Below, in pieces: positions 3,334 to 48,908 of a DNA stretch of 64,000 nt; the stretch's first letter is position 1, and each line of letters starts with the position of its first letter. Source of the DNA: Octopus vulgaris (taxonomy: Eukaryota); assembly GCA_951406725.2 (NCBI GenBank), contig OX597823.1, positions 114,328,001 through 114,392,000 on the forward strand, written 5' to 3'. The notes beneath the pieces are model-generated. The model was not told where the DNA came from, did not search any database, and saw nothing but the letters and a program-made list of their open reading frames with translations. The translations under genes and the position numbers were made by a program.

Positions 3334-3423
3334 CCCTATGTATACAGCTGTTTGTTTTTGTTTGTTTTGTTTTGTTTTTCCAGTTTCAGCTCTTGAGCTG
3401 TGGCCATGCTGGGGCACCGCCAT

Positions 3424-3582
3424 TGTGGTGAAAGAGTACAGCAGGGATCACCACCCCCTGCCGGAGCCTCGTAGAGCTTTTAGGTGTTTTCGCTCAATAA
3501 ACACACACAACGCCCGGTCTGAGAATCGAAACCGCGATCCTGCGACCGCGAGTCCGCTGCCCTAACCACTAGGCCATTGCCT
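3424..3582 (-). mobile_element. tRNA-derived SINE family A, 5' part
   Basis: Reverse complement of the head seen at 12977 and 16351 (CAATGGCCTAGTGGTTAGGGCAGCGGACTCGCGGTCG...GGTTTCGATTC), with A/B-box-like motifs. Confidence 0.85.
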
Positions 3583-10015: not shown

Positions 10016-10545
10016 GGTCCCGGGTTGAGTCGGGGTTAACCACAGTAAATAAGGTACTCAATACATAGCAGAGTAAATTAATTTATTTTATAGAAGGACT
10101 AGAACTGTTTCATTCAAATGAAATCATCAGGAAGCTTGGTGTCAAGAATAGTTTTGGCATTTATACATTTAGGCAGATTTAAAGGGGTGGTGGTGGGGGA
10201 CTTTTTTGGGGTAGGCATGGCGCAAACTGTCGTTCTTAGGGGAGTGGTCAAAAGAATCAGTGATAAAGTAGATAAATGAATAAATAGAATAATAGAATAG
10301 AGTTTTAGGTAAATAAGAAGACTATCGCTTATATATATTCATTTATCTACTTTATCACTGATTCTTTTGATCACTCCCCTAAGAAAGACAGTTTGCGCCA
10401 TGCCTACCCCCCAAAAAGTCCCCCCCCCTTTAAATCTGCCTAAATGTATAAATGCCAAAACTATTCTTGACACCAAGCTTCCTGATAATTTCATTTGAAT
10501 GAAACAGTTCTAGTCCTGTAGAAGCTCCTTCTATAAAATAAATAA
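10013..10545 (-). mobile_element. Penelope-like fragment with inverted duplication, in (TA)n
   Basis: Arms ~10081-10282 and ~10336-10543. Same terminus (GTAGGTCCCGGGTTGAGTCGGGGTTA) as 32508-32705. HHR remnants in both arms. Confidence 0.8.
10476..10526 (+). ncRNA. Type I hammerhead ribozyme with core mutation (G8>A)
   Basis: AGCTTC-CTGATAA-TTTCATTTGAAT-GAAA-CAG..CTG-TA-GAAGCT. The other arm retains CTGATGA but has a deletion removing the cleavage site. Confidence 0.6.
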
Positions 10546-10603: not shown

Positions 10604-10916
10604 GTATATATATATTTATATGTATATGTATATATATATATATATGTATATATATGTATATACATGCAAGCATTATAAAATTTGAAACAGATATGAACGA
10701 AATATTAATTTTCATGCGTTACAAAAATATGTACACCCTTAAGGAAATTTCCTATATTCAATATTTTATCCAAATTTTTTTTAAAAATTCAGATATTGCT
10801 GATAACTTCAATTCTAATAAATTATTTCTCCTGGCATTTTTGCACCGGTCATTCTTATTGCATCTGCAGGAATTCTGATTTGTGTACCTTGGTGAAAATC
10901 GTCTTCATTTTGATTA

Positions 10917-12178
10917 AAAAGTCACCAAAAGGAAAACAATTGTCTGAGGATTTGAAATTTATTTTTAATTTGCAGAAGAATGGTTTAGGATGCAAGATAA
11001 TTAGCAAACGAATACATATTAGCGTAAACACAGTTGCCAAAGTAATTCAGAAGTACAAAGCTACAGGACGGAAAAGTAATAACCATCGTCCAGATCGTAT
11101 CTTCTCTTTTAAATGCGCGATATTCACCACTTTTAACGTTGCGTGATGGACGACAAGCGACGTACCACTTCATCTCCGGCCCAAGAAGTGCCTTCTTATT
11201 TCTTTATTGCCCACAAGGGGCTAAACATAGAGGGGACAAACAAGGACAGACAAAGGGATTAAGTCGATTACATGGACCCCAGTGCGTAAGTGGTACTTAA
11301 TTTATCGACCCCGAAATCGATAAAAGGCAAATCCGACCTCGGCGGAATTTGAACTCAGAACGTAACGGCAGACGAAATACTGCTGAGCATTTCGCCCGGC
11401 GTGCTAACGTTTCTGCCACCTCGCCACCTTTATCTGCTAGCTCGCTGCTTTCGGCCCAAGAAGTGCCTCCTGTTTGTGGAAAGAGTGTATCCCGCTAAAC
11501 AGTTCACCGAAGTTTGAACCGGTGTGGTTTTCATGGACGCATTCCTCGTAGGAAGCCTTTCATCACTACCAGGCATGAATTAAATCGTCTTTCTTTTGCC
11601 GAAACTTATGTGACTAAGGGAAAGGGGTTTTCGAATAAGATTCCTTTTTCTAATGAGACTAAAATCAACTTGTTTAGAACAGATGGTATTAAACGATTAT
11701 TGCGAAGATACTAGCGACAAATGCACTGTGCCTACCGGGAAACACGGTGGTAGAAGTTTTATGCTTTGGCAATACATGAGTACAGCTGGTGTGGGAGGAC
11801 TCACATTTATTGAGAGGACAAAGGATTCTAGGCTTTATTGTGAGATATTTCAGAAAACAATGCTGAAAAGAGCAAGGAACTACGAAGACATTCCATGTTC
11901 CAACAAAATAATGCCCCTAAACACACTTCAAAGATGACGATTAAGATTTTATCAGATAAAAAGGTAAATGTACTGCCTTGGCATACCATGTCTCCTGATT
12001 TAAACCCAATAGAACATCTGTAGGGTATTTTGAAAAGGAAGATTGAGGAGAAAAAAAGACATCATTCAGGATGAATGGAGGTCGACTTAATCGGTTATAT
12101 GCGGAAATTTAGACGACTCTATACCCAGAAGACTTAATGCATTCATTGGAAGCAAGGGCGGTCACACCAAATATTGAA
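10917..12178 (+). pseudogene. Tc1 DD34E transposase pseudogene, interrupted by a SINE
   Basis: HTH region KIISKRIHISVNTVAKVIQKYKATG, then GRIPRRKPF, FSNETKINLF, KHGGRSFMLW, FQQNNAPKH, SPDLNPIEHL and GGHTKY, spread over frameshifts and stops. Confidence 0.9.
11194..11451 (-). mobile_element. SINE family C nested in the Tc1 transposase, 17-bp TSD
   Basis: TSD CGGCCCAAGAAGTGCCT at 11177-11193 and 11452-11468. Reverse complement of 35258-35482. Confidence 0.9.
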
Positions 12179-12976: not shown

Positions 12977-13267
12977 GGAGGGCGCAATGGTGCAGCGGAC
13001 TTGCGGTCGTAGGATCGCGGTTTCGTTTCTCAGACCGGGCGTTGTGAGTGTTTATTGAGCGAAAACACCTAAATCCTCCTCGAGCCTCCGGTAGGGGGTG
13101 GTGATCCCTGCTGTACTCTTTCACCACTCTTTCTCCCACTCTTTCTTCTGTCGGCCTGCTCGCTTAGCCAGCGGGGTGGCGTCATTTGAAGGCTAAAACA
13201 ATGCGAAGCGCATTGTGACAAGCGATTTGTCGCAACATATGATAGCCTGGTCGGTCACGGTGACGTG
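12977..13267 (+). mobile_element. SINE family A
   Basis: Colinear with 16351-16660, with a small deletion in the A box. Flanked by TA tracts. Confidence 0.85.
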
Positions 13268-13285
13268 ATATATATATATATTTAT

Positions 13286-13333
<48 letters not shown>

Positions 13334-13697
13334 ATATGACGTGTATATATATATATATATATATATATATGTCACAGTGACGTGATATATATATATATGG
13401 GGGTGTATGTGTGCGTATGTGCATGTGTATGTGTGTTCGTGAGTCTACATATTTGTGTCTATCTGTGTGTGCGTGTGTGCATCTGCATGGACATACACAC
13501 ACATACTTGTATCCGCATGAGTAAATCGGCATTCGATTATAATTTTGCTCAATTGTAAATAATTCCCCAATACTATCCCAAACATACAATCGCTGAATGC
13601 TGTGAGACAGGTGATATCAAAACAGTATTCAATGATAAAGCTTGTATTGTAATAGAATCCGTTCTTTGTGGTGATTTCTCAATGCAACTTACTACAC

Positions 13698-14495
13698 GAG
13701 GGGATACACAAAAGAAACCGGAATTTTGCAATTATTATTTCATTCACTTAGTTTTACATGCTTACATGTCTTTTAACACCTACGTCGTTTTAAATTCACC
13801 TCTTCTATATCTGAAAATTCCGTAGCACCAGCTTTCGTCACCAGGCTCGACATTCGAAAAAAACTTCCAGCTGTTCTTTCACTTCAAGACACGCATTCAG
13901 TCGTAACTGCTTTTGATCGTCCGTAAGCAAGGAAGACACCAATTATACTGTAACACTTTTCATTCGCAATTCCACGTTCAAAATTCGTTAGATTGAGCTC
14001 CAGAACACATCAGTCATATTAACAAGTTCTTCAATTATTCGGCGAACGTCTTCCAAGATCAGTTCAGGAATTTTTGTGATGTCTTCATTTGTTCGGGAGG
14101 TCGACGGTCGTCCTGAACGAGGTTGGTCTTCAAGCGACAATTGGTCATACCTAAAGCGTGAAAATCACTCGTCAACTTGTGTTTTGCTTATGGCAGTGAC
14201 CCTGTATGCTGTTTGATGCATAACAACTAATTCGGCCGCCGTTTTACCCAGCAGAAAACAGAATTTCACGGAGGCACATTGTCTCTTCGTTCAGCCATCC
14301 GCAAAAATCGACGTAGAGGGGAAAAAAAACAAAGTAAAGATACACCATGTGGCAGTACGACCTTAGACGTCGACGGCGGTGGTCGGCATGCTGATTGCCT
14401 GTGCGTTGCATCAAGTGACTACTAGCAGCGGAAGCCTGAACTTCAACGGGCTTGCGCATCAGTAAACGTTTCCGGTTATTTTGAACACCTCCTCA
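13698..14495 (-). mobile_element. Internally deleted mariner element
   Basis: Imperfect TIRs CGAGGGATACACAAAAGAAACCGGAA / TTCCGGTTATTTTGAACACCTCCTC. The minus strand encodes VKFCFLLGKTAAE...LEDQPRSGRPSTSRT...LRMKSV (mariner N-terminal HTH region). Confidence 0.8.
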
Positions 14496-14570
<75 letters not shown>

Positions 14571-14871
14571 CTATATATATATAGCTATATATATATATAT
14601 ATATATATAATTAAGGACAACTACTTAATAAGGAAAACTTAACAAGAAATTGTCAGGTAGATAGCGTAAAAACCTCATAAGAGAAAAAATTTCGAAAATA
14701 ATTATTTCTTATTGAACATATTAATTTATATATAGAGGGCATTATAAATACATGCCAGAAGGCATTATACATACATGCCAAACGCTAAGAGGGACAATTA
14801 GTCATTTCTACCAAAAAATATTACTAATCCCACCGAATGCAATTTTTCAAAGTAAGACATTTAAAAAATAT

Positions 14872-14919
14872 AGACCTGTATCACAGTGATTTCATACTTA
14901 CGTACTCATCAGCAGGCCT
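14872..14919 (-). ncRNA. Minimal type I hammerhead ribozyme
   Basis: Exact reverse complement of 15418-15465. Confidence 0.85.
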
Positions 14920-15417
14920 GAATGCATTATAAATAAACAACGACCCTGCCCCGCTTAAGTCGATCAGCTAACTGTTCAACTTCAACGAAGCACATGGGTG
15001 AGTTTACATATATTACATCCGGTCAAATGGCGAACTTTTACGAATTGCATTTCGGGAGAGGAAAAGTTTTTTCGGAATAAAAATTTAGCAATTAAGGACA
15101 ACTACTTAATAAGGAAAACTTAACAAGAAATTGTTATTTCGAAATTTTTCGAAATTATTTTCGAAATTTTTTCTCTTATGAGGTTTTTACGCTATCTACC
15201 TGACAATTTCTTGTTAAGTTTTCCTTATTAAGTAGTTGTCCTTAATTGCTAAATTTTTATTCCGAAAAAACTTTTCCTCTCCCGAAATGCAATTCGTAAA
15301 AGTTCCCCATTTGACCGGATGTAATATATGTAAACTCACCCATGTGCTTCGTTGATGTTGAACAGTTAGCTGATCGACTTAAGCGGGGCAGGGTCGTTGT
15401 TTATTTATAATGCATTC

Positions 15418-15465
15418 AGGCCTGCTGATGAGTACGTAAGTATGAAATCACTGTGATACAGGTCT
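15418..15465 (+). ncRNA. Minimal type I hammerhead ribozyme
   Basis: AGGCCTG-CTGATGA-GTAC[GTAA]GTAT-GAAA-TCAC[T]GTGA-TA-CAGGTCT. 7-bp stem I, GNRA-capped stem II, near-palindromic stem III, AUA triplet. Confidence 0.88.
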
Positions 15466-15566
15466 ATATTTTTTAAATGTCTTACTTTGAAAAATTGCAT
15501 TCGGTGGGATTAGTAATATTTTTAATGGTAGAAATGACTAATTGTATATCTTAGCGTATATATGTA

Positions 15567-16239
15567 TATAATTTCAACAATTGAGGGTATGTATTATTAA
15601 TCAATTTCACCAAGTATTCAGTATGTAATTTAATGCCTTCTATTACATTTTATAAAGGGCTTAGTAAAATAAATTACTTTGCCACATACTGAACTCATTA
15701 GAAATAGCATAGCCAAAAAAAATTTTTTAGCCATTTCTAATACTTAAACTTAAAATTTCTCTCAGATAGTGTTTACTCAAAATAACCCACGAAGGTATGG
15801 GGGTAAAAACATTAAAAAATCACAAGTGCAAAGATTATTTGAGAACGTACGTTTCTAGATCAGCCAAATACAATTCGACATTTCTTTCGTCAGCTCAAAA
15901 TTTCTTAAATCGGATTTGTAAACACTGAAAGTAGGAGCATACCCTTTTGGCGACTTTTCACCTCCGAAGATCCGTTCAAACTAACAGTGCCAACAAATTC
16001 AAAATATGCAAGCGAAGAATTTCTGCCCTCCCCTTCCATCCACGTGGGCTAAACTAGCAAACACCATGTTTTATCGGTGAAAACCGAAGCATTAAACAGA
16101 GAGAAATGAATTATAATTTCAACAATTGAGGGTAAAATTAATTAATTATTAATCAATTTCACCAAGTATTCAGTATGTAAAGGGACCATTTAAGGCGAAT
16201 TCAAAATATTACATTTTATAAAGGGTTTAGTAAAATAAA
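15567..16239 (-). mobile_element. HHR-bearing element with terminal direct repeat (~545-bp period)
   Basis: 15567-15673 recurs with indels at 16112-16239. TA-flanked. Related to the reverse complement of 16709-17440. Confidence 0.8.
15838..15899 (-). ncRNA. Type I hammerhead ribozyme
   Basis: Minus strand reads TTTGAG-CTGACGA-aAGA..GTCGAAT/ATTTGGC..TCTa-GAAA-CGTACG-TT-CTCAAA. 6-bp stem I, palindromic stem III ACGTACGT, GUU triplet. Confidence 0.75.
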
Positions 16240-16246
16240 ATAAAAT

Positions 16247-16701
<455 letters not shown>

Positions 16702-16708
16702 TATATAT

Positions 16709-17558
<850 letters not shown>

Positions 17559-20119
17559 ATATATATATAATGCATATAGATTCACGAACATACACATTTA
17601 TTCATAGACATGCACACATGTGTATATAAAATTTTAAAATTATTTTTCAAATGTCTCATTTATCAGTTTTAATAATCTAGAGATTACTTTATTGACGATC
17701 TGCAGTTGCATAGTTATTTACAGATCGTAATTTAAGTGGATTCTTTTTAGTTGTACTTAAAGATATGTGTACTTCACTTTGCAGACCAAATACAGCCGCT
17801 TTTAGCACTGTAGGTAATTAATACAATTTATCTGAACGTAGAAGGTGAGAGCAGCATTGTGTGAAGAAGCGTCTAGCAATATTTGTCGTCACATTAATGT
17901 TACACAAGTTCACTTAGACAAAATTTTTCTACGTCTACAGTAGTTGGTTTTAATTGGGGTGAGTGCAAATCTTCCCAGAACTATAGAGGGTTACCCATAT
18001 CTTAGAGAAAATCAAAAGCATTTTCAAAGTAACGTTGTTAACTAAACGAACGTTTCACATTCGATTGACTTCCTGATGACACGACATTTCGCTTATTTTT
18101 CATTCTCCATTATTTTAATGGAAGCCGACCAGTCACGCAGTGATCTTCATTGATAGGAGAGAGGATGCTGAGAATTGTATTGCATTTCAAATTTCCCACT
18201 TCTGCGTTTTTGCTTTAGTAATGAACGCGCTGTATTTTTTACAAGTATTTCAAGTGTAACCCATCGACCGTTTGGTAAGTATTACCGCGAACGTTTCACT
18301 TGCATACGGCTAAGATGGCGGCACAGATGCTTTGGTAGACCACCAACATGGTTTGGCATCTGACGAGCTTCATCTCTGGTATGTTCTTCTGAAGACTAAC
18401 GGTATCAACGTTAGTTCAATCAGTTCTTCATTGACAATGTGTATCATTTTCCGGAGAGCGTGGCTAATATGCCACAATACATTAGAATATGAATCGTGAA
18501 CAGAATTTCAAATACTGTATATTCTTTGTGATTTTTTTCTTCACTTTTAACCTATTTACAAAGAAACCTACAGCTATATCTTTCGATTCTATGAAAGAGT
18601 TAAAATAAGACAATATAAATTTGATGTCTGTATTTAAATTTGATCTATGAATAATACTATATAGGTCAATAAATTTTGTGAGATTGATTTGCATGGTCAG
18701 CAATGTAGTTTTGGCACTTTTGTAATAGACACTCGATTTGGAAGTTTGACAACATCTAAGTTTAGTTTCAATGATTGAGCGCCAATCAGGTCACTAATGA
18801 CCAACTTTCCCAGAGAACATTGATTTCGGAAAAGTATTTATATGTAATGTATTTCATTGCTATAGAAACACATCTACTCGAAATACAATAATAATGTGTA
18901 CGTTCTGATATTGTATTATAATTATGTGGTTTTGTGCGGTTTTACATGTACCTCGGCGCCCAGCTTAGCATCACTACATGGCAGTTTATTGCCAGGTTAA
19001 AACACCCACATGGCACTAGTTACTAGTTTTCACATTTCAATAATATTACCAATTAACAGGGAAATTTCTGAATATCACAGCCTCAATAAATTATCAATTA
19101 ACGATCTGCGAAGCTGGTGGAAGGAAGAGGGTCATTATACGATGATCGAAAATCTTGATTAAATACCTGCCATAGATGGTCTCCGTAAAAGGCAACAGGA
19201 GGCTATAGACTGTTGCTCAATCTATTGGGGCCTCGAATATTTTGAAACGTTAATGGATTAATGGTCTTAGTGAAAATATTTAATAAAAACTATTAAATAA
19301 AAGAGTTTTATATTATACTGTATTATATACGCACATAAATGCATACATACATAAAAAACACATACATGCATACATACGTACATAAATACAAACATACGCA
19401 CATACATACATAAACAGTCACTCAGCCATATTATTTTCATGAATGCTTTCCTTAACTTATTTTCTTAATTTAATTAGTTTACTCACACGAATTTGTGAAC
19501 GTGATGTGTGGGTATTAAAGACAGAGAGAAAGGGACGAGAGAGAGTGAAAGAGGAAGAAAGAAAGGGAGAGTAAGAGAGAAAGAGAGAGAGAGAAGGGGG
19601 AGAAATAAGAGACTACATCATTCAAAATATATATATGAAAAATAATGAATTTTCAGAATTGGTGATATTGGTTAATATATATATATTTTATATAATAAAA
19701 TCATGAAAACAGAGAAAGACAAATGTGATAAAATAAGAATGATTAAAAATAACCAAGAAAACGAGAAGTAAACGGTAAACAGTAAACATTCTGTTAAAAG
19801 ACAACGTAATGGCGGTCTAAAAGTGATAAATTTACTGTAGTGCCTCTAGCAGAATTTACCGAGAAATATTAGTTTATTCAGATATTTTAGGCCTAAGTCA
19901 CCAGTTTTACTCACCCTCCATATTGTTTGTGTATATGTAGAGTGTATATGGGTGCCTGAGTATATTTTGTATGTATATGTCTGTATGCCTTCCAGTGTGT
20001 TTCTGTTTGCTAGTTATTTTTTTTCTCAACTTGCCAGTGTGTGTACGTTCATATGAGTGTAGCCAAAAGTATATATGAGACGCTATATATCTGTGTAACT
20101 TTTTGTGCGGATGCATGTG

Positions 20120-28203: not shown

Positions 28204-28419
28204 AATAATAATAACCTCAAGATCAATACAAAAAAAGAAGACATACCTGGATTCTTTGATTTAAACAGTAAGAGTATTGAATAATGACAGAAATGCAGGC
28301 TGGAGTAATTAAGTGTGCAGTATGAAGATATACTCCGATGGCATAAAATTACCACAACACAACATTATTAAATTGCTGTGGAATAATGAGTGATTAAAGG
28401 ATACCTTCAGTGCTCTAAC

Positions 28420-29340
28420 ACCTGTTTCTGTCAGAAATTCAAAGTCCCTGAGGATGTTTGCCTTGCCCTTTTCGACCATTAACTTTTCAGGTGTATGGTT
28501 GTACCAAGCACCCGTTACGTTGTATCCATACTTCTGGTATAGTAGTGGCCAGTGAAGGTCTTGTCTGCGCTTGTACTCTTCTTGCACAAGCCTTTCACAA
28601 GCATTCACAATGTGAGTCACGCTTTCGACCTTCTCCTCACATATTCTGCAGAGGTTCATTGCATTTGTCTGATATATATTCCTTTTCACTGGTCAGCGAT
28701 GATTAGACTTTCAGTCTTCTTATTTAGGTCAGCCTTGCTAAGCCACTTCCATGATGCTCTCTGGTCCTTAAAGTTGTTAGTTTCACGACGGAAGTGACCA
28801 TGTAATTCCATGAGGAGTAGAGTTTCTTCTCCCTCTTTAGCCATTCGTGTTCAAAATCCATTAGCCCTTTCACTTCCATTTTTTGATAAATCCTTCTGCA
28901 TTAGCGGCCTGTAGCAGGTCTAGTTTGCAGTTAACCAAATATTGTCATATCTCACATTTGATGCACTCCCGTACGCTAATCAGCCCACGTCCAACTTTGT
29001 ACCACTTCATGTAGAGCCTGTGTAAATTCGCCTTAGACTGGAGGGCACTAAGCTTTGTCATTGTTTCCCAGATAGTGCGATCGAGCTGGTTAATTTGCGC
29101 TCGTGTCCATTTCAGGATGGGTGCACTATAGTGGACTACAGCAACAGCCCATATCTTGATGGCAGTCACAAGGTTCTTTGAGTTGAGTTTTGATCTCAAG
29201 AGAAGTTTGAGGTGCTTCAAATGTGATGACCTTGTCTTTCATTTCTCTGTGCAAGATATTGTCCAGCTGCAGAATTTCGAGGTACTTGTACCCATCATCA
29301 TCCGGGTCTTCCATTCTCTCTCCGTTTGACAATTCTGTTC
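28420..29340 (-). pseudogene. RLE-type LINE (R4/Dong-like) fragment: RT thumb to CCHC region
   Basis: GYKYLEI; KLNSKNLVTAIKIWAV; RLYMKWYKVGRGLISV; CRICEEKVESVTHIVNAC..EYKRR..WYNHTPEK..ILRDF. Confidence 0.8.
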
Positions 29341-29614
29341 CCTTATTATTATTCTTGTTGTTGCTGTTGTTGTCGATGTTGTTATTTTCATTATCATCTT
29401 CTTTCAGTTCTGTTTCCATTTCTTGCTGAGTGTCTTCCTGACACCTAGGGCAATGCAATATATACATTGGTAGGTCATTAAAATAAACACACCAAATTGG
29501 CCATTTACAGACATGTGATAGAGAAAAGGGGAAAGAAAGACAAAGACAAAAACATAAACATAAAAATTATTGTTAATTCCAGTTGCAATAGTCCATGGCC
29601 ACCTTCTTTTCGTG

Positions 29615-30115
29615 TCTATGGAAGTCGTTCTATAACTGCCTTAGGGTGGTGCATTCTATTTATTGTCAATAACTCTCGTATTTTTCTGTCAAGATTACAG
29701 ATTTCAGTAATTGACCAGTTAATAATATTGAAACTGTAAGTCACAACCGGTATGGCTAAAGTATTGATCGCTTCGATCCTGTTTCTTGCGTTCTGCTCTG
29801 TCTTCAGTATTCACCATTCTTTTCTGATCTTTGCCCTCATCATTGAATGTTTGATTCCATCACCTTCAAATAGCCCTAGGTATTTGTAGCTCTCAGCTGG
29901 TGTTAACTCCTTTATAACATTCCTATGTCAAGATTAACGTTGGATGTTTCTGACATCTTACCTCTGATAAAGGTAACCTTTGCACATTTATTTAGTCCAA
30001 ATTCCATCCTGATGTCATCACGTAACTGTTTAACAATTGCTAGTAAACCCCAGAGTTGTTGGTAATTTTTTGCAAAGACCTTTAAATCACCCATGTAAAA
30101 GAGATGTTTTATTTT
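29615..30115 (-). pseudogene. Second R4/Dong-like LINE RT fragment
   Basis: LFYMGDLKVFAK (YMDD motif decayed), IRMEFGLNKCAK, ESYKYLG, AINTLAIPVVTYSF, MHHPKA. Confidence 0.8.
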
Positions 30116-32246
30116 TTGTAAATTTTTTTTATAGCAATAGTGTACATAGTTTATTTTCTGATATTGGACACATGTCCTTTTCCATCCAAAATTTCAAGGT
30201 ACGTCGTCCTACTCCACGACTTCTTTCCAGCTTTGCTCTTTCATGACATACAATAAGTGTATTTATGTCCATTTATGTATTTATTGCGCACCGTGTATGT
30301 GACCTTTTGTGACATAGCGACCATCCGAGGCCAGATCACTGCTCCTGATGCGAGAGGTTTCGGACGTGCCGGGCGGGAAACCTTCACCATGATCGGCTAT
30401 AACTTAAATTTCGCCATTAATTCATTCCTTGTTGTGTTGCATCATGATTTCTTGAGTCGTTCGTAGGGTTCCCATGAGAGTTGTTATTGAGATTCCATCT
30501 CTCTCTTCCTCTCTTTATTTGTATATACGCGTGCACATGCATGTACATACACATATATATAAATAACGTACTTGCATTGTGTCGCCCCCGTAACCACAGC
30601 GATTATCATTACCATCATCGTTCTGTGTTGGCTATAATTTCTGTATAAATAACATTAAGAAAATAATTTCTTTCACACTCCACTTCTTGTAACACTCTAG
30701 TGGAAATTTTGTGTGTGCTGTACCTATTCGGGCCCTTGTGGCTTTTAAAGAAAACATTATTATTAATATCTCAAGCAGTACACGAGAGGTTTCCACGGTC
30801 ATATAGAAAATTGTAAGATTAAACAGAAACACGAACTATATAGATATACGCATGCACACAGTGGAATACATAAGTATATACGCACATATATATCCATAAG
30901 CCGAGTATATTGTCTTCGGTCGGCTTTTTGCAATAAATGCATCGTCATCAAGTCTAACAAGGGTCGCATAATAGTTGCCCATGATGAAGATACCTAAGGT
31001 TTCCTTTCAATATAGTCGAAGTAGCTCTACATTTTAAACTGCCATGTATTTTCCCACTTTTATTTTCTTAACCAATAAGATTAGGTTTAAGTAGATGTTA
31101 CTATGTAACTTTGATTGATTACAGACTTTAATTACAAACTTGAAACTCCGAGTAAGAAAGTAGCAGAATAGCTACTCTTGTACTATATACAAGTAAATAA
31201 ATTAATATATAAATGCATATCAATGAGCATACCTGCATATATATATATATATATATACATACACATACATATATATATATGTGCATAAATAAATGGATAA
31301 ATATTGTAATATATATATAATATTGTGGGTGCTTCAACAAACATGAACGCACTCAAATCCAATTATGAAGACAAGAAAACACGTGCCTACACATTCATGC
31401 AACCATGCGTCAACGCACAATGCCATACACAAATACTGAAAAAGAAAAATAATGGAAAGGAAAAGAAAGAGAAATAAAGACGTACTTAGAAAGATATTGA
31501 CAAATAGAGAAGAGACAGATCAAGAGACAGAATGAGACAGACAGACAGACAGACAGGCACCGAAATACATAATAAGAGAAGTTATGCGGGGTGAGAGAAA
31601 AGACAGGAAATGTTTCGAATTTGTCATGATCTTATTTAAAATTATTCTTTTACCTTATTCAAAGAGAATCGCCTGAACGTATTCTCTTCTCTTTTATCTC
31701 CATCATGTGAAACGAATATCTTTTATTTTCTATTTTTTTCAAAAAGTCTACATTGTATTCACAGTTCTATAATATCTTATTTTATGACATCTTCAGCCCC
31801 TGAAAAGATTTTTGTGAATAAAGATGTACAAAACGACACACAATGAACTGGTGAAATTTTAACGAAACGACTTACAATAAATATTCATAGGTTCCGTTTG
31901 AAAAAAGTACATGCATATATCACTGTTTCGAACTACACATAAATATATCTTTCAGTCTCTATCTATATGTATGTAAGAATATACAAGGAAGTAGGCATAC
32001 ACAGACACACATGTATGTGTCTCTAGGTAAGTATATCTATAGAAATAGTTAGTGTCTACAAGGTAAAACCCGAAGATATAAATCATTAAGAATTATATAT
32101 AATTTATACAATATAAATTTATATATCTATATATATAACAAAAGCATATGCTCAAAGATGAAGATGTGTGAGTGTGTGTGTGCACATGCGCACATGCGCA
32201 TATATCATATATACATATATTTATACATATACATGTATGTGTAAAC

Positions 32247-45711: not shown

Positions 45712-45837
<126 letters not shown>

Positions 45838-45889
45838 AGATAATAACAATAAGAATAATAATAATAATGATAATGATAATAATAATAAA

Positions 45890-46443
45890 TGCCCTGATGC
45901 AGTACTAGGCAGTGGCTCTCATGGCTTCTGATCTTAACTGATTGGAAGTGTCATCATGTACATTGTTTTGTCTTGGTATAAAAGATGGGCTACAGCAAAT
46001 ATTCTGCTCAATACCACAGATTTGCTTGTCAGTTGTTTGACCATAACCAGTTGAGCATGTCCCTTAGTGGCTGACGATATGTGCATCACTGAATACGAGC
46101 AGAAGTAGTGGGGGAGCATCATAGCCCTGTGTTGAGAGGGATTTTGGGGGTTTGAATAATTCACTTCTGGAAACTTGGTTGTTTCGTTCAACCTCTTTAA
46201 ACAAGCCTTATTCAGGGACCTTTTGAGCGGGATGGGCTACTCAAACGGAAGGAAATTATAACTGGGCCGCACCTGCAAGATCTTGTGCTGTTTATCTTGA
46301 TATGAGATCAACACGTCGCGCACATATGGTTGTGATGCATGTGCCTAGTATACCCTTATCAGACGGGTAGTCATGATGGGTATACTAGGCTTTGTATATT
46401 CTTTCCCAATGTCACTTTGATGGCATGCACTGCTCTCTCGCTC

Positions 46444-46496
<53 letters not shown>

Positions 46497-46549
46497 TAAT
46501 AATAATAATAGTAATAATAGTAATAATAATAGTAATAATAGTAATAATG

Positions 46550-46587
<38 letters not shown>

Positions 46588-47093
46588 TGATTGGAAGTGT
46601 CATCATGTACATTGTTTTGTCTTGGTATAAAAGATGGGCTACAGCAAATATTCTGCTCAATACCACAGATTTGCTTGTCAGTTGTTTGACCATAACCAGT
46701 TGAGCATGTCCCTTAGTGGCTGACGATATGTGCATCACTGAATACGAGCAGAAGTAGTGGGGGAGCATCATAGCCATGTGTTGTGAGGGATTCTTTGGGG
46801 TTTGAATAATTCACCTCTGGAAACATGGGTGGTTCTTTCAACATCCTTAAACAACCCTTATTCAGGGACCTTTTGAGCGGGATGGGCTACTCAACCTGAA
46901 GAAAATTCTAACTGGGCCCCACCCGCAAGGTCATGTGCTGTTTATCTTGATATGAGATCACTATGTCGCGCACATATGGTTGTGATGCATGTGCCTGGTG
47001 TACCCTTATCAGACGGGTAGTCATGATGGGTATATTGGGCTTCGTATATTTTACCCCAGTGTCACTTTGATGGCATGAACTGCTCTCTCACTC

Positions 47094-47140
<47 letters not shown>

Positions 47141-47199
47141 TAATAATAATAATAATAATAGTAATAATAGTAATAATAATAGTAATAATAGTAATAATG

Positions 47200-47237
<38 letters not shown>

Positions 47238-47743
47238 TGATTGGAAGTGTCATCATGTACATTGTTTTGTCTTGGTATAAAAGATGGGCTACAGCAAATA
47301 TTCTGCTCAATACCACAGATTTGCTTGTCAGTTGTTTGACCATAACCAGTTGAGCATGTCCCTTAGTGGCTGACGATATGTGCATCACTGAATACGAGCA
47401 GAAGTAGTGGGGGAGCATCATAGCCATGTGTTGTGAGGGATTCTTTGGGGTTTGAATAATTCACCTCTGGAAACATGGGTGGTTCTTTCAACATCCTTAA
47501 ACAACCCTTATTCAGGGACCTTTTGAGCGGGATGGGCTACTCAACCTGAAGAAAATTCTAACTGGGCCCCACCCGCAAGGTCATGTGCTGTTTATCTTGA
47601 TATGAGATCACTATGTCGCGCACATATGGTTGTGATGCATGTGCCTGGTGTACCCTTATCAGACGGGTAGTCATGATGGGTATATTGGGCTTCGTATATT
47701 TTACCCCAGTGTCACTTTGATGGCATGAACTGCTCTCTCACTC
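45890..47743. repeat. Three ~510-550-bp copies of an interspersed repeat separated by (TAA)n arrays
   Basis: Units ~45890-46443, 46587-47093 and 47237-47743. Units 2 and 3 look identical (650-bp period). Unit 1 diverges in its distal part. Confidence 0.9.
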
Positions 47744-48548
47744 AATAATAATAATAATAATAATAATAATACCTCATAATCACTGTAATGTATACTCTTT
47801 TACTCGAAAGAAACAAATCAATATTTAGTGTAAATACAGCAACATCATTCTATATAAGATTCATTTACATTTCTTCTTATGCCAGAGACTCTATAAAATT
47901 GTAAAATGCTGAAGACTTGTACAGAGAGGAAACAAGGAAATTTAACAGACTTCTATATTTACATTGATTTACAAACAACTTCAGGGCTGCCTATTTATAA
48001 AGTGAACTCTGTTATTCTCTAAAATTGTGTAAAATAATAAATAAAATGTTGTGTATTGATTTTTCTCCCTAAAAATGTATTTTGTAAATAATATTTACTC
48101 TATAATAGGATTTTCAAAATTTCTTTGGTGAAAATTCATTTATTAATGGAATTTGAATATTTCTTCATAACAACGTTACTTTCTGTTTAATTGCCGGTCC
48201 TTATATTGACATAGGGTCCATAAAGTTTGTTTAAAAGAGACACAGGTGATAGAATTATCATGTCAGAAATATTTTACTACTGCTGTGAAACTAAGTAGAT
48301 TTTGCACAAGAATGATATTAGTTGTCATATGTAAATATCGTAGGACGTTTTATGTCTAACGTTCTACACACACTGCTCTTAACGTCTCTTTTGATAATAC
48401 TAGCAATTACAGTAACAATCTTAATGTGGATGATGATGAGAAAGAGGAGGAGGAGGAGGAGGACGGGGAATTAATGAAAATCCAGCAAATATCACCCCTA
48501 AACTCAAAGAAGCCACGCGTGCAAAACAGATCTGTACAATTTTCCTTT

Positions 48549-48908
<360 letters not shown>

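Follow-up and report, generated by a model that had tools for sequence, protein, structure and literature searches.

An inverted double insertion of a high-copy, non-coding hammerhead element with Penelope-type anatomy in the genome of Octopus vulgaris

Introduction

Penelope-like elements (PLEs) leave insertions of unusual shape. In Craig et al. 2021 (PMC8557442), they are described as partial tandems with an inverted 5'-truncated copy at the 5' end and a bias towards (TA)n, and non-autonomous PLEs with pLTRs (Chlamys, MRC1) are included; the supplement adds (TA)n-targeting Naiad and Hydra families in Octopus. Minimal hammerhead ribozymes (min-HHRs) of Schistosoma mansoni occur as dual motifs about 100-700 bp apart on opposite strands, and copying beyond one unit has been ascribed, as a proposal, to circular templates (Cervera and De la Pena 2014, PMC4209133). 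Circular RNAs have been proven for the non-LTR retrozymes of mussel, coral and axolotl (Cervera and de la Pena 2020, PMC7229834). According to a preprint by Li, Clavereau and Pollet 2026 (10.64898/2026.07.22.740005), retrozymes are derived from pLTRs, with no mollusc among the 35 species of the main text.

On the biochemical side, the purified PLE protein of Poseidon from Anolis carolinensis cuts and extends both strands of AT-rich targets in vitro (Frangieh et al. 2024, PMC11167929). It starts at fixed internal sites on the RNA, and hammerhead cleavage is dispensable, unprocessed RNA being the dominant substrate (PMC11167929). The way in which PLEs produce tandem and inverted insertions, and the role of their hammerheads, are stated to be open questions in PMC11167929 and in section 15 of PMC8557442. 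For Octopus vulgaris, the repeat annotation counts 190 Penelope-like families, making up 6.83% of the genome, and ribozymes go unmentioned in its main text (PMC13282606). We found no paper describing a hammerhead family of the present kind in octopus or other cephalopods, in a literature search that most subscription journals, Repbase and Dfam lay outside.

Here we analysed a 64,000-nt stretch of O. vulgaris DNA (the window; contig OX597823.1, positions 114,328,001 to 114,392,000) and compared one inverted double insertion within it, at window positions 14499-15568, with these systems.

Results

Structure of the insertion

The insertion consists of two arms of opposite orientation joined head to head, with the following parts.

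14499-14608, no strand: left (TA)n target tract, with two short TAGC interruptions near 14566 and 14580.
14609-15089, RNA sense on the minus strand: left arm, the full 481-nt unit; 14609 is the element 3' end and adjoins (TA)n.
15090-15134, minus strand: 45-nt terminal redundancy (second lap, unit 1-45), a pLTR-like partial tandem.
15135-15152, no strand: inversion junction with a templated stutter of 18 nt, an imperfect extra copy of the right-arm start.
15153-15557, RNA sense on the plus strand: right arm, an inverted copy running from unit 95 to 1 and then from 481 to 174; its 3' end is 15557.
15558-15568, no strand: short TA-rich target remainder between the right arm and the next element, like unit 158-168 at 10 of 11 positions.

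An earlier note, made from the letters of the window, had described a 481-nt unit that runs into its own first 45 nt, then a stutter at 15135-15152 and an inverted copy that crosses the same end-to-start junction and reaches 95 nt beyond it. Self-comparison of the window bore out each of these points: the 45 nt after 15089 (15090-15134) repeat the unit start exactly, without any upstream extension, and 15153-15247 matches unit 1-95 as its reverse complement at 100%, after which the right arm crosses the 481|1 junction and continues to unit 174. The arms measure 1.09 units (left) and 0.84 units (right). The right arm carries 50 nt past the 481|1 junction that are absent from the left arm, and its 3' end lies 173 nt short of the usual one. 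Over 403 aligned positions, the arms are separated by five substitutions (unit 183-185, 373 and 423, three of them adjacent) and one 2-nt insertion. The RNA 3' ends of both arms face outward into TA-rich DNA, and the 45-nt partial tandem and the inverted 5'-truncated copy adjoining the 5' end are traits of PLE-type insertions.

Short matches accompany the inner junction and the right end. Just before the stutter, the left-arm end shows microhomology to the reverse complement of unit ~96-105 (9 of 10 positions), and the best inverted match of the left-arm terminus in the whole unit is this switch site (the 10-mer tested there, at position 95, matches at 8/10, and the runner-up at 7). The 11 target bases beside the right arm, similar to unit 158-168 at 10/11, match position 395 equally well; the atypical right 3' end may reflect microhomology priming or a later deletion.

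As for the target tract, the TAGC within (TA)n at 14566-14590 is also the sequence of unit 478-481, where other copies end (15086, in the public runs X2 and X8 described below). These two interruptions of (TA)n are the only such sites in the window, and they are possibly traces of abortive initiation. AATT or AATTT precedes (TA)n at four 3' ends (14609, 15567, 17440 and 48584), and the right-arm end is without AATT.

The circularised unit has a GC content of 0.33, and its longest stop-to-stop frames are 54 and 43 aa, in keeping with the previous statement that neither arm holds an ORF. No ORF remnant was found in the unit, nor the combination of PLE RT and GIY-YIG ORF by which an autonomous PLE is recognised. 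The unit is non-coding, has a GC content below 45% and bears a type I hammerhead, as non-LTR retrozymes do. Its RNA is strongly self-paired, with MFE z-scores of -6.6 as a circle (60 shuffles) and -7.4 as a linear molecule (30 shuffles), against +0.7 for a flank control. Because both neighbouring elements and the unit in linear form fold equally well, we rejected RNA structure as a signal specific to a circle. The general description in the earlier note, a non-coding hammerhead element with PLE-type insertion anatomy, stands.

Hammerhead ribozymes of the arms

Each arm contains one ribozyme.

14872-14919, minus strand: left-arm minimal type I hammerhead, core 14912-14879, predicted cut 14879|14878.
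15418-15465, plus strand: right-arm minimal type I hammerhead, core 15425-15458, identical to the left one.

In the 64 kb, a strict descriptor for type I hammerheads matched exactly two sites, one per arm, which lie 513 nt apart on opposite strands. A relaxed descriptor matched four sites, compared with one match across 10 simulated 64-kb sequences. One relaxed hammerhead-like match, at 10482-10520, has an altered core and falls within the chance range. Rfam at the gathering threshold gave 0 matches over the whole 64 kb. At E up to 10 over 14400-17600 it gave 33 sub-threshold matches, none of them to a hammerhead family, and these were treated as low-complexity or hairpin noise.

The arm hammerheads have the core CUGANGA...GAAA...NUH with stems I-III present: stem I of 7 bp, stem II of 4 bp, and a palindromic stem III with a 1-nt loop. 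Stems I and II were predicted to pair with a probability of 0.89-0.99. Stem III was predicted to stay unpaired inside a single molecule (pair probability about 0.02); its energy is -0.2 kcal/mol intramolecularly versus -12.1 kcal/mol as a two-strand duplex, so that the palindrome is predicted to be stable only when two copies pair. The 10.1-11.1 pair is G.U at the locus in place of G10.1-C11.1. The "intact minimal HHR" that the earlier note had assigned to each arm is accordingly right for the core, which the strict descriptor finds twice, and has to be amended for the G.U at 10.1-11.1 and the dimer-type stem III. According to the folding models, the arm ribozyme is the intact core of a dimer-type hammerhead, whose activity would probably be confined to tandem donors, and be late or rare there.

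Measured from the left 3' end, the predicted cut falls 270 nt inside the unit, and the unit start at 14609 does not coincide with it. With only one ribozyme per strand, rather than an array of at least two complete head-to-tail ribozyme-bearing units, the locus is unable to make a circle itself.

The family in public contigs

A run search returned 24 runs, 20 of which contained the stretch; they came from 7 studies and two organisms, and all were contigs, none of them recorded as RNA. Four of the 20 (X1, X2, X8 and X10) were aligned, on 14654-15152 only, and contig depth in them stands neither for copy number nor for expression. Two DNA-type runs, from two organisms, held 1253 and 1198 matching contigs, and the element belongs to a high-copy family. 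Two exact-pattern scans of metagenome contigs gave 0 and 0 matches.

The 481|1 junction is crossed in X2 by record 17, which is near-identical to the unit, and by record 21, which has five other letters and three gaps; judged from these contigs, the junction is family-wide and older than this insertion. Among the 23 of 103 loose ends listed, X2 and X8 show (TA)n ends just before 15086 (unit -4). Four of the five (TA)n-abutting 3' ends among those listed, two of which are contig ends that may be one locus, fall within about 16 nt, the right arm being the exception. In this small sample of five ends, the family has a fixed 3' end, a variable 5' end and a (TA)n target, as PLE-type elements do. 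Furthermore, a loose end at 15052 in X8 continues as the exact reverse complement of 14855-14868 (0/20000 shuffles), and one at 14704 in X1 resembles the reverse complement of ~14915-14948. From their letters, these two appear to be further strand-inversion junctions of the family.

Position 15032 is A in the contigs (36393 of 36726 depth units in X1, 320092 of 320691 in X10, and all in X2 and X8), and both arms carry G, a rare family allele. This rare allele, common to both arms, points to one template or donor for both, and two independent adjacent insertions were rejected for the same reason. The right arm's own differences have no counterpart among the listed family variants. Across 14846-14904, no substitution at 1% or more is listed in the family contigs; a frequent change at 14905 turns the G.U into A-U at 10.1, and X10 has a variant with C at 11.1. 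On this pattern of variation, the ribozyme looks constrained in the family.

Within the stutter, 15147-15152 has zero contig cover in four of four runs and no strand-change joint, the stutter lying at the edge of the aligned stretch. We rejected the missing cover as evidence of misassembly, because absence from contigs proves nothing. Joints at which contigs go back by 481 nt (X10, X2 and X8) were likewise rejected as evidence of a circle: every circle 31-mer (481 of 481) is already present in the linear left arm by itself, which makes such joints uninformative.

Neighbouring elements

Two further elements of related type follow the insertion, giving three such insertions within 3 kb.

15567-16242: second element with a partial tandem, facing the right arm tail-to-tail; spacing of 545 nt and a terminal repeat of 110-131 nt.
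16709-17440: third partial-tandem element, 602-nt spacing, 130-nt repeat 99% identical, in the opposite orientation to 15567-16242.

Both neighbours are 1.2-mers in (TA)n. The element at 15567-16242 has a degenerate minus-strand hammerhead (15893-15844) with a palindromic stem III and U at position 17, and that at 16709-17440 has a hammerhead-like core near 17060-17138 on the plus strand, as judged by eye and by folding. The presumed cut site is 277 nt away from the 3' end at (TA)n in the former and 302 nt in the latter, versus 270 nt in the focal unit. Across some 100 nt at the 3' end the two are about 75% identical, and their fold z-scores are -5.7 and -5.6. A relative of the 3' part of the focal unit (76% identity) is found at 48584-48765 between (TA)n tracts; it begins, at a (TA)n tract, around position 12 of the unit, breaks off near position 207 and is without the 23-nt tandem duplication found at 14734-14779.

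A Pfam scan of 116 window frames (at least 75 aa, non-simple composition) found no GIY-YIG domain and no PLE protein remnant. Six frames gave weak matches, all below the curated cut-offs, and two of these were RT-related. Sub-threshold RVT_1 and zf-RVT matches lie on the minus strand at 28312-30193, which is probably a decayed LINE. A decayed Tc1/mariner transposase remnant with a weak Pfam HTH_SB match occupies 10709-11930, and 13500-14498, beside the focal (TA)n tract, is from its translation what we take to be another such remnant. SINE-like repeat copies are present at 12992-13287, 16354-16676 and near 3423-3580, with a head that we assume to be like that of the octopus OR2-type SINE. At 45787-47771 there is a tandem repeat with a period of about 650-660 nt, 89-94% identical, beside (ACT)n; the scans found no hammerhead in it.

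No autonomous partner was found among the 116 window frames or by motif matching to the PLE consensus file of PMC8557442, in which 10 short motifs of these elements gave one 10-nt chance match, to a nematode Naiad (line breaks in the file can hide matches). Hydra-1_Obim was rejected as the partner, since by eye its printed hammerhead and 3' end differ from those of the unit.

Template and mode of insertion

The right arm requires a template in which 1-95 comes directly after unit 174-481. As the left arm cannot supply this arrangement from its first lap, the 481|1 junction was in the template. A simple fold-back onto that first lap was rejected, as it would run into the TA tract and not into unit 481. 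The minimum template is 576 nt (1.2 units) if the RNA or its sister transcripts served twice, or 1057 nt (2.2 units) if one molecule was used once in non-overlapping parts. A linear, terminally redundant RNA of 576 nt used twice accounts for both arms, and a circle is not required; at 1.2 units, such a template has the same form as both neighbours. The earlier note had proposed a circle or concatemer as template. Of that proposal, the presence of the junction in the template holds, with at least two variants crossing it, and a circle or true concatemer is not established, since linear RNA of 576 nt fits as well.

We consider it reasonably probable (about 0.68) that the locus is a recent insertion of a high-copy non-autonomous hammerhead element that borrowed a PLE RT/GIY-YIG enzyme and used a linear, terminally redundant template. 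The observations behind this reading are the anatomy, the family-wide unit junction, the clustered 3' ends at (TA)n and the single template allele shared by the arms. A 1.2-mer or longer donor of the focal family was not seen directly in the window or in the contigs listed.

Insertion might have proceeded as follows. A terminally redundant RNA of at least 576 nt, in the simplest case transcribed from a donor of 1.2 units or more and left linear and uncleaved, would bind the PLE protein, which would cut both (TA)n strands and prime one cDNA at each end. The left cDNA would begin at the fixed start of the family; the right one would have an unusual start inside the unit, unless it was shortened later. 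Both would copy through the uncleaved ribozyme site and the unit junction. Their 3' ends would then anneal via the natural inverted microhomology of the unit and be joined with slippage, leaving the stutter. We presume that the stutter resembles polymerase theta joints. For the both-strand route, we extrapolate from in vitro work on a single Poseidon element of a lizard. As a source of new copies, the locus has probably reached a dead end, since its read-through RNA would fold into a hairpin of ~400 bp.

Alternative explanations

A closed template, as expected of a retrozyme, is a tentative alternative that we consider rather unlikely. Cleavage by two hammerheads would free a 481-nt monomer from tandem donors elsewhere, a ligase of the host would close it, and a PLE RT would copy more than one lap from both target strands. 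The locus would then be a fossil of rolling-circle reverse transcription, a doubtful reading in which both strands of one (TA)n break served the PLE enzyme as primers on a single, covalently closed 481-nt RNA and the ligated cut site was crossed twice. Both arms do cross the cut site and the unit junction, and stem I is predicted to hold the two ends of a cleaved monomer together; nevertheless, stem III is of the dimer type, and a same-strand donor of about 1.65 units with two ribozymes would be needed, of which none was seen. The strong self-pairing of the RNA as a circle is in line with this alternative, but the linear RNA is equally structured. In X2, records 17 and 19 close a full cycle, and the main variant runs unbranched through the junction, which hints faintly at a circle or a long array; all circle 31-mers are nevertheless supplied by the linear left arm, so that contig cycles are uninformative. 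Circles have been proven for the retrozymes of mussel, coral and axolotl (PMC7229834) and proposed for PLEs (PMC4209133), whereas a PLE in vitro dispenses with ribozyme cleavage and uses mainly unprocessed RNA (PMC11167929). The earlier note had expected circularly permuted ends. Permutation was not seen, with four of the five (TA)n-abutting 3' ends listed clustering as described above, but this test cannot discriminate, because PLE RT starts at fixed internal sites (PMC11167929); with internal initiation, fixed 3' ends are compatible with a circle too.

It is improbable that the unit belongs to a coding PLE, as its pLTR or 3' end, and that the family is a set of truncated copies of one master with a short partial tandem. 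Minimal hammerheads of this kind also occur in pLTRs, Hydra-1_Obim combines a preference for (TA)n with a palindromic stem III that has a 1-nt loop (PMC8557442), and Xenopus retrozyme units are homologous to pLTRs in the preprint (10.64898/2026.07.22.740005). On the other hand, diverged variants share the junction, no long well-supported foreign extension occurs RNA-upstream among the 23 of 103 loose ends listed, and the unit is without an ORF remnant. With 31 of 2514 contig pieces and these 23 loose ends listed, a connection to coding sequence may have escaped notice. Even under a linear terminally redundant template, the reading that we prefer, the unit likely descends from a pLTR.

Even less credible is an inversion at the DNA level after insertion, by fold-back replication or break repair of a longer left arm and subsequent asymmetric deletion at the palindrome centre. 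The shared rare allele and the microhomology with templated stutter would suit an arm copied from the other; in addition, the right end has clustered changes and is without the AATT of the other four 3' ends. Two extra events would nevertheless be required (unit 46-95 would have to be lost from the left arm, and copying would have to leave for the TA tract a second time), and inverted copies are a general trait of PLEs and recur in the focal family. Finally, an assembly or library artefact in the form of a fold-back chimera is very unlikely: PLE structures are known to trouble assemblies, and four of four contig sets lack cover and a strand-change joint at 15147-15152, but the arms differ by four separate events, the right arm has 50 post-junction nt missing from the left, contigs drop rare junctions, the stutter sits at the edge of the aligned stretch, and the insertion may be polymorphic.

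Discussion

The layout of the locus and the circle model have both been published already (PMC8557442 and PMC4209133, respectively); the family itself may be undescribed. The shape of the locus alone does not show a circular template and does not decide between a linear and a circular one. Nevertheless, a young, short, high-copy and non-coding family is a handy natural reporter, as both arms and the template junction are readable in less than 1 kb, and insertion lengths and ends collected genome-wide could separate linear terminally redundant templates from circular ones. If rolling-circle copying were true, the focal and two sister families would represent a high-copy circular-RNA parasite of PLEs in a cephalopod genome, spread as 1.1-1.2-mers and not as arrays, and circular PLE intermediates would be directly testable from insertion lengths and RNA.

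Twin-priming 5' inversions of L1 have outward RNA 3' directions and microhomology at the inversion junction, and their arms are non-overlapping parts of one RNA. In contrast, the arms at this locus overlap, and twin priming in one pass would need 1057 nt (2.2 units) or a circle. Our literature search found no PLE-specific treatment of twin-priming inversions.

The likeness to the PLEs of PMC8557442 extends to the pLTR partial tandem, the inverted 5'-truncated copy at the 5' end, the (TA)n target without a visible TSD and the hammerhead in the repeat. Unlike these PLEs, the locus has no RT or GIY-YIG ORF, the whole unit is 481 nt, and its alternative 3' ends are 173 nt apart, in place of the optional 30-40-nt tail of PLEs. 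The ribozyme resembles the minimal PLE hammerheads of PMC4209133 in being of type I, dimer-type and dual on opposite strands with a short palindromic helix III. It differs from them in having G.U for the usual G10.1-C11.1, a 4-bp stem II, and a stem I extended by a long irregular duplex.

Poseidon offers the direct route to two head-to-head cDNAs, with extension on both strands, AT-rich targets and RT starts downstream of the ribozyme. It is, however, autonomous and belongs to another clade and host, and the AC-rich stem-loop that contains its start sites lies about 90 nt from the cut, versus 270 nt here.

With non-LTR retrozymes, the element shares a non-coding unit, a low GC content (33%), self-paired RNA and a type I hammerhead, and presumably also dependence on PLEs. 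Monomeric copies of retrozymes have been described, and 481 nt is within the 51-972 bp range of the preprint (10.64898/2026.07.22.740005). In contrast to retrozymes, the locus is without a two-unit array, the unit exceeds the 170-400 nt of proven circles, and the ribozyme is minimal, not canonical. Because of the missing two-unit array, and because the element is known here from DNA and not from circles, we do not file it as a retrozyme, nor as an autonomous PLE; it works like a non-autonomous PLE or a retrozyme monomer.
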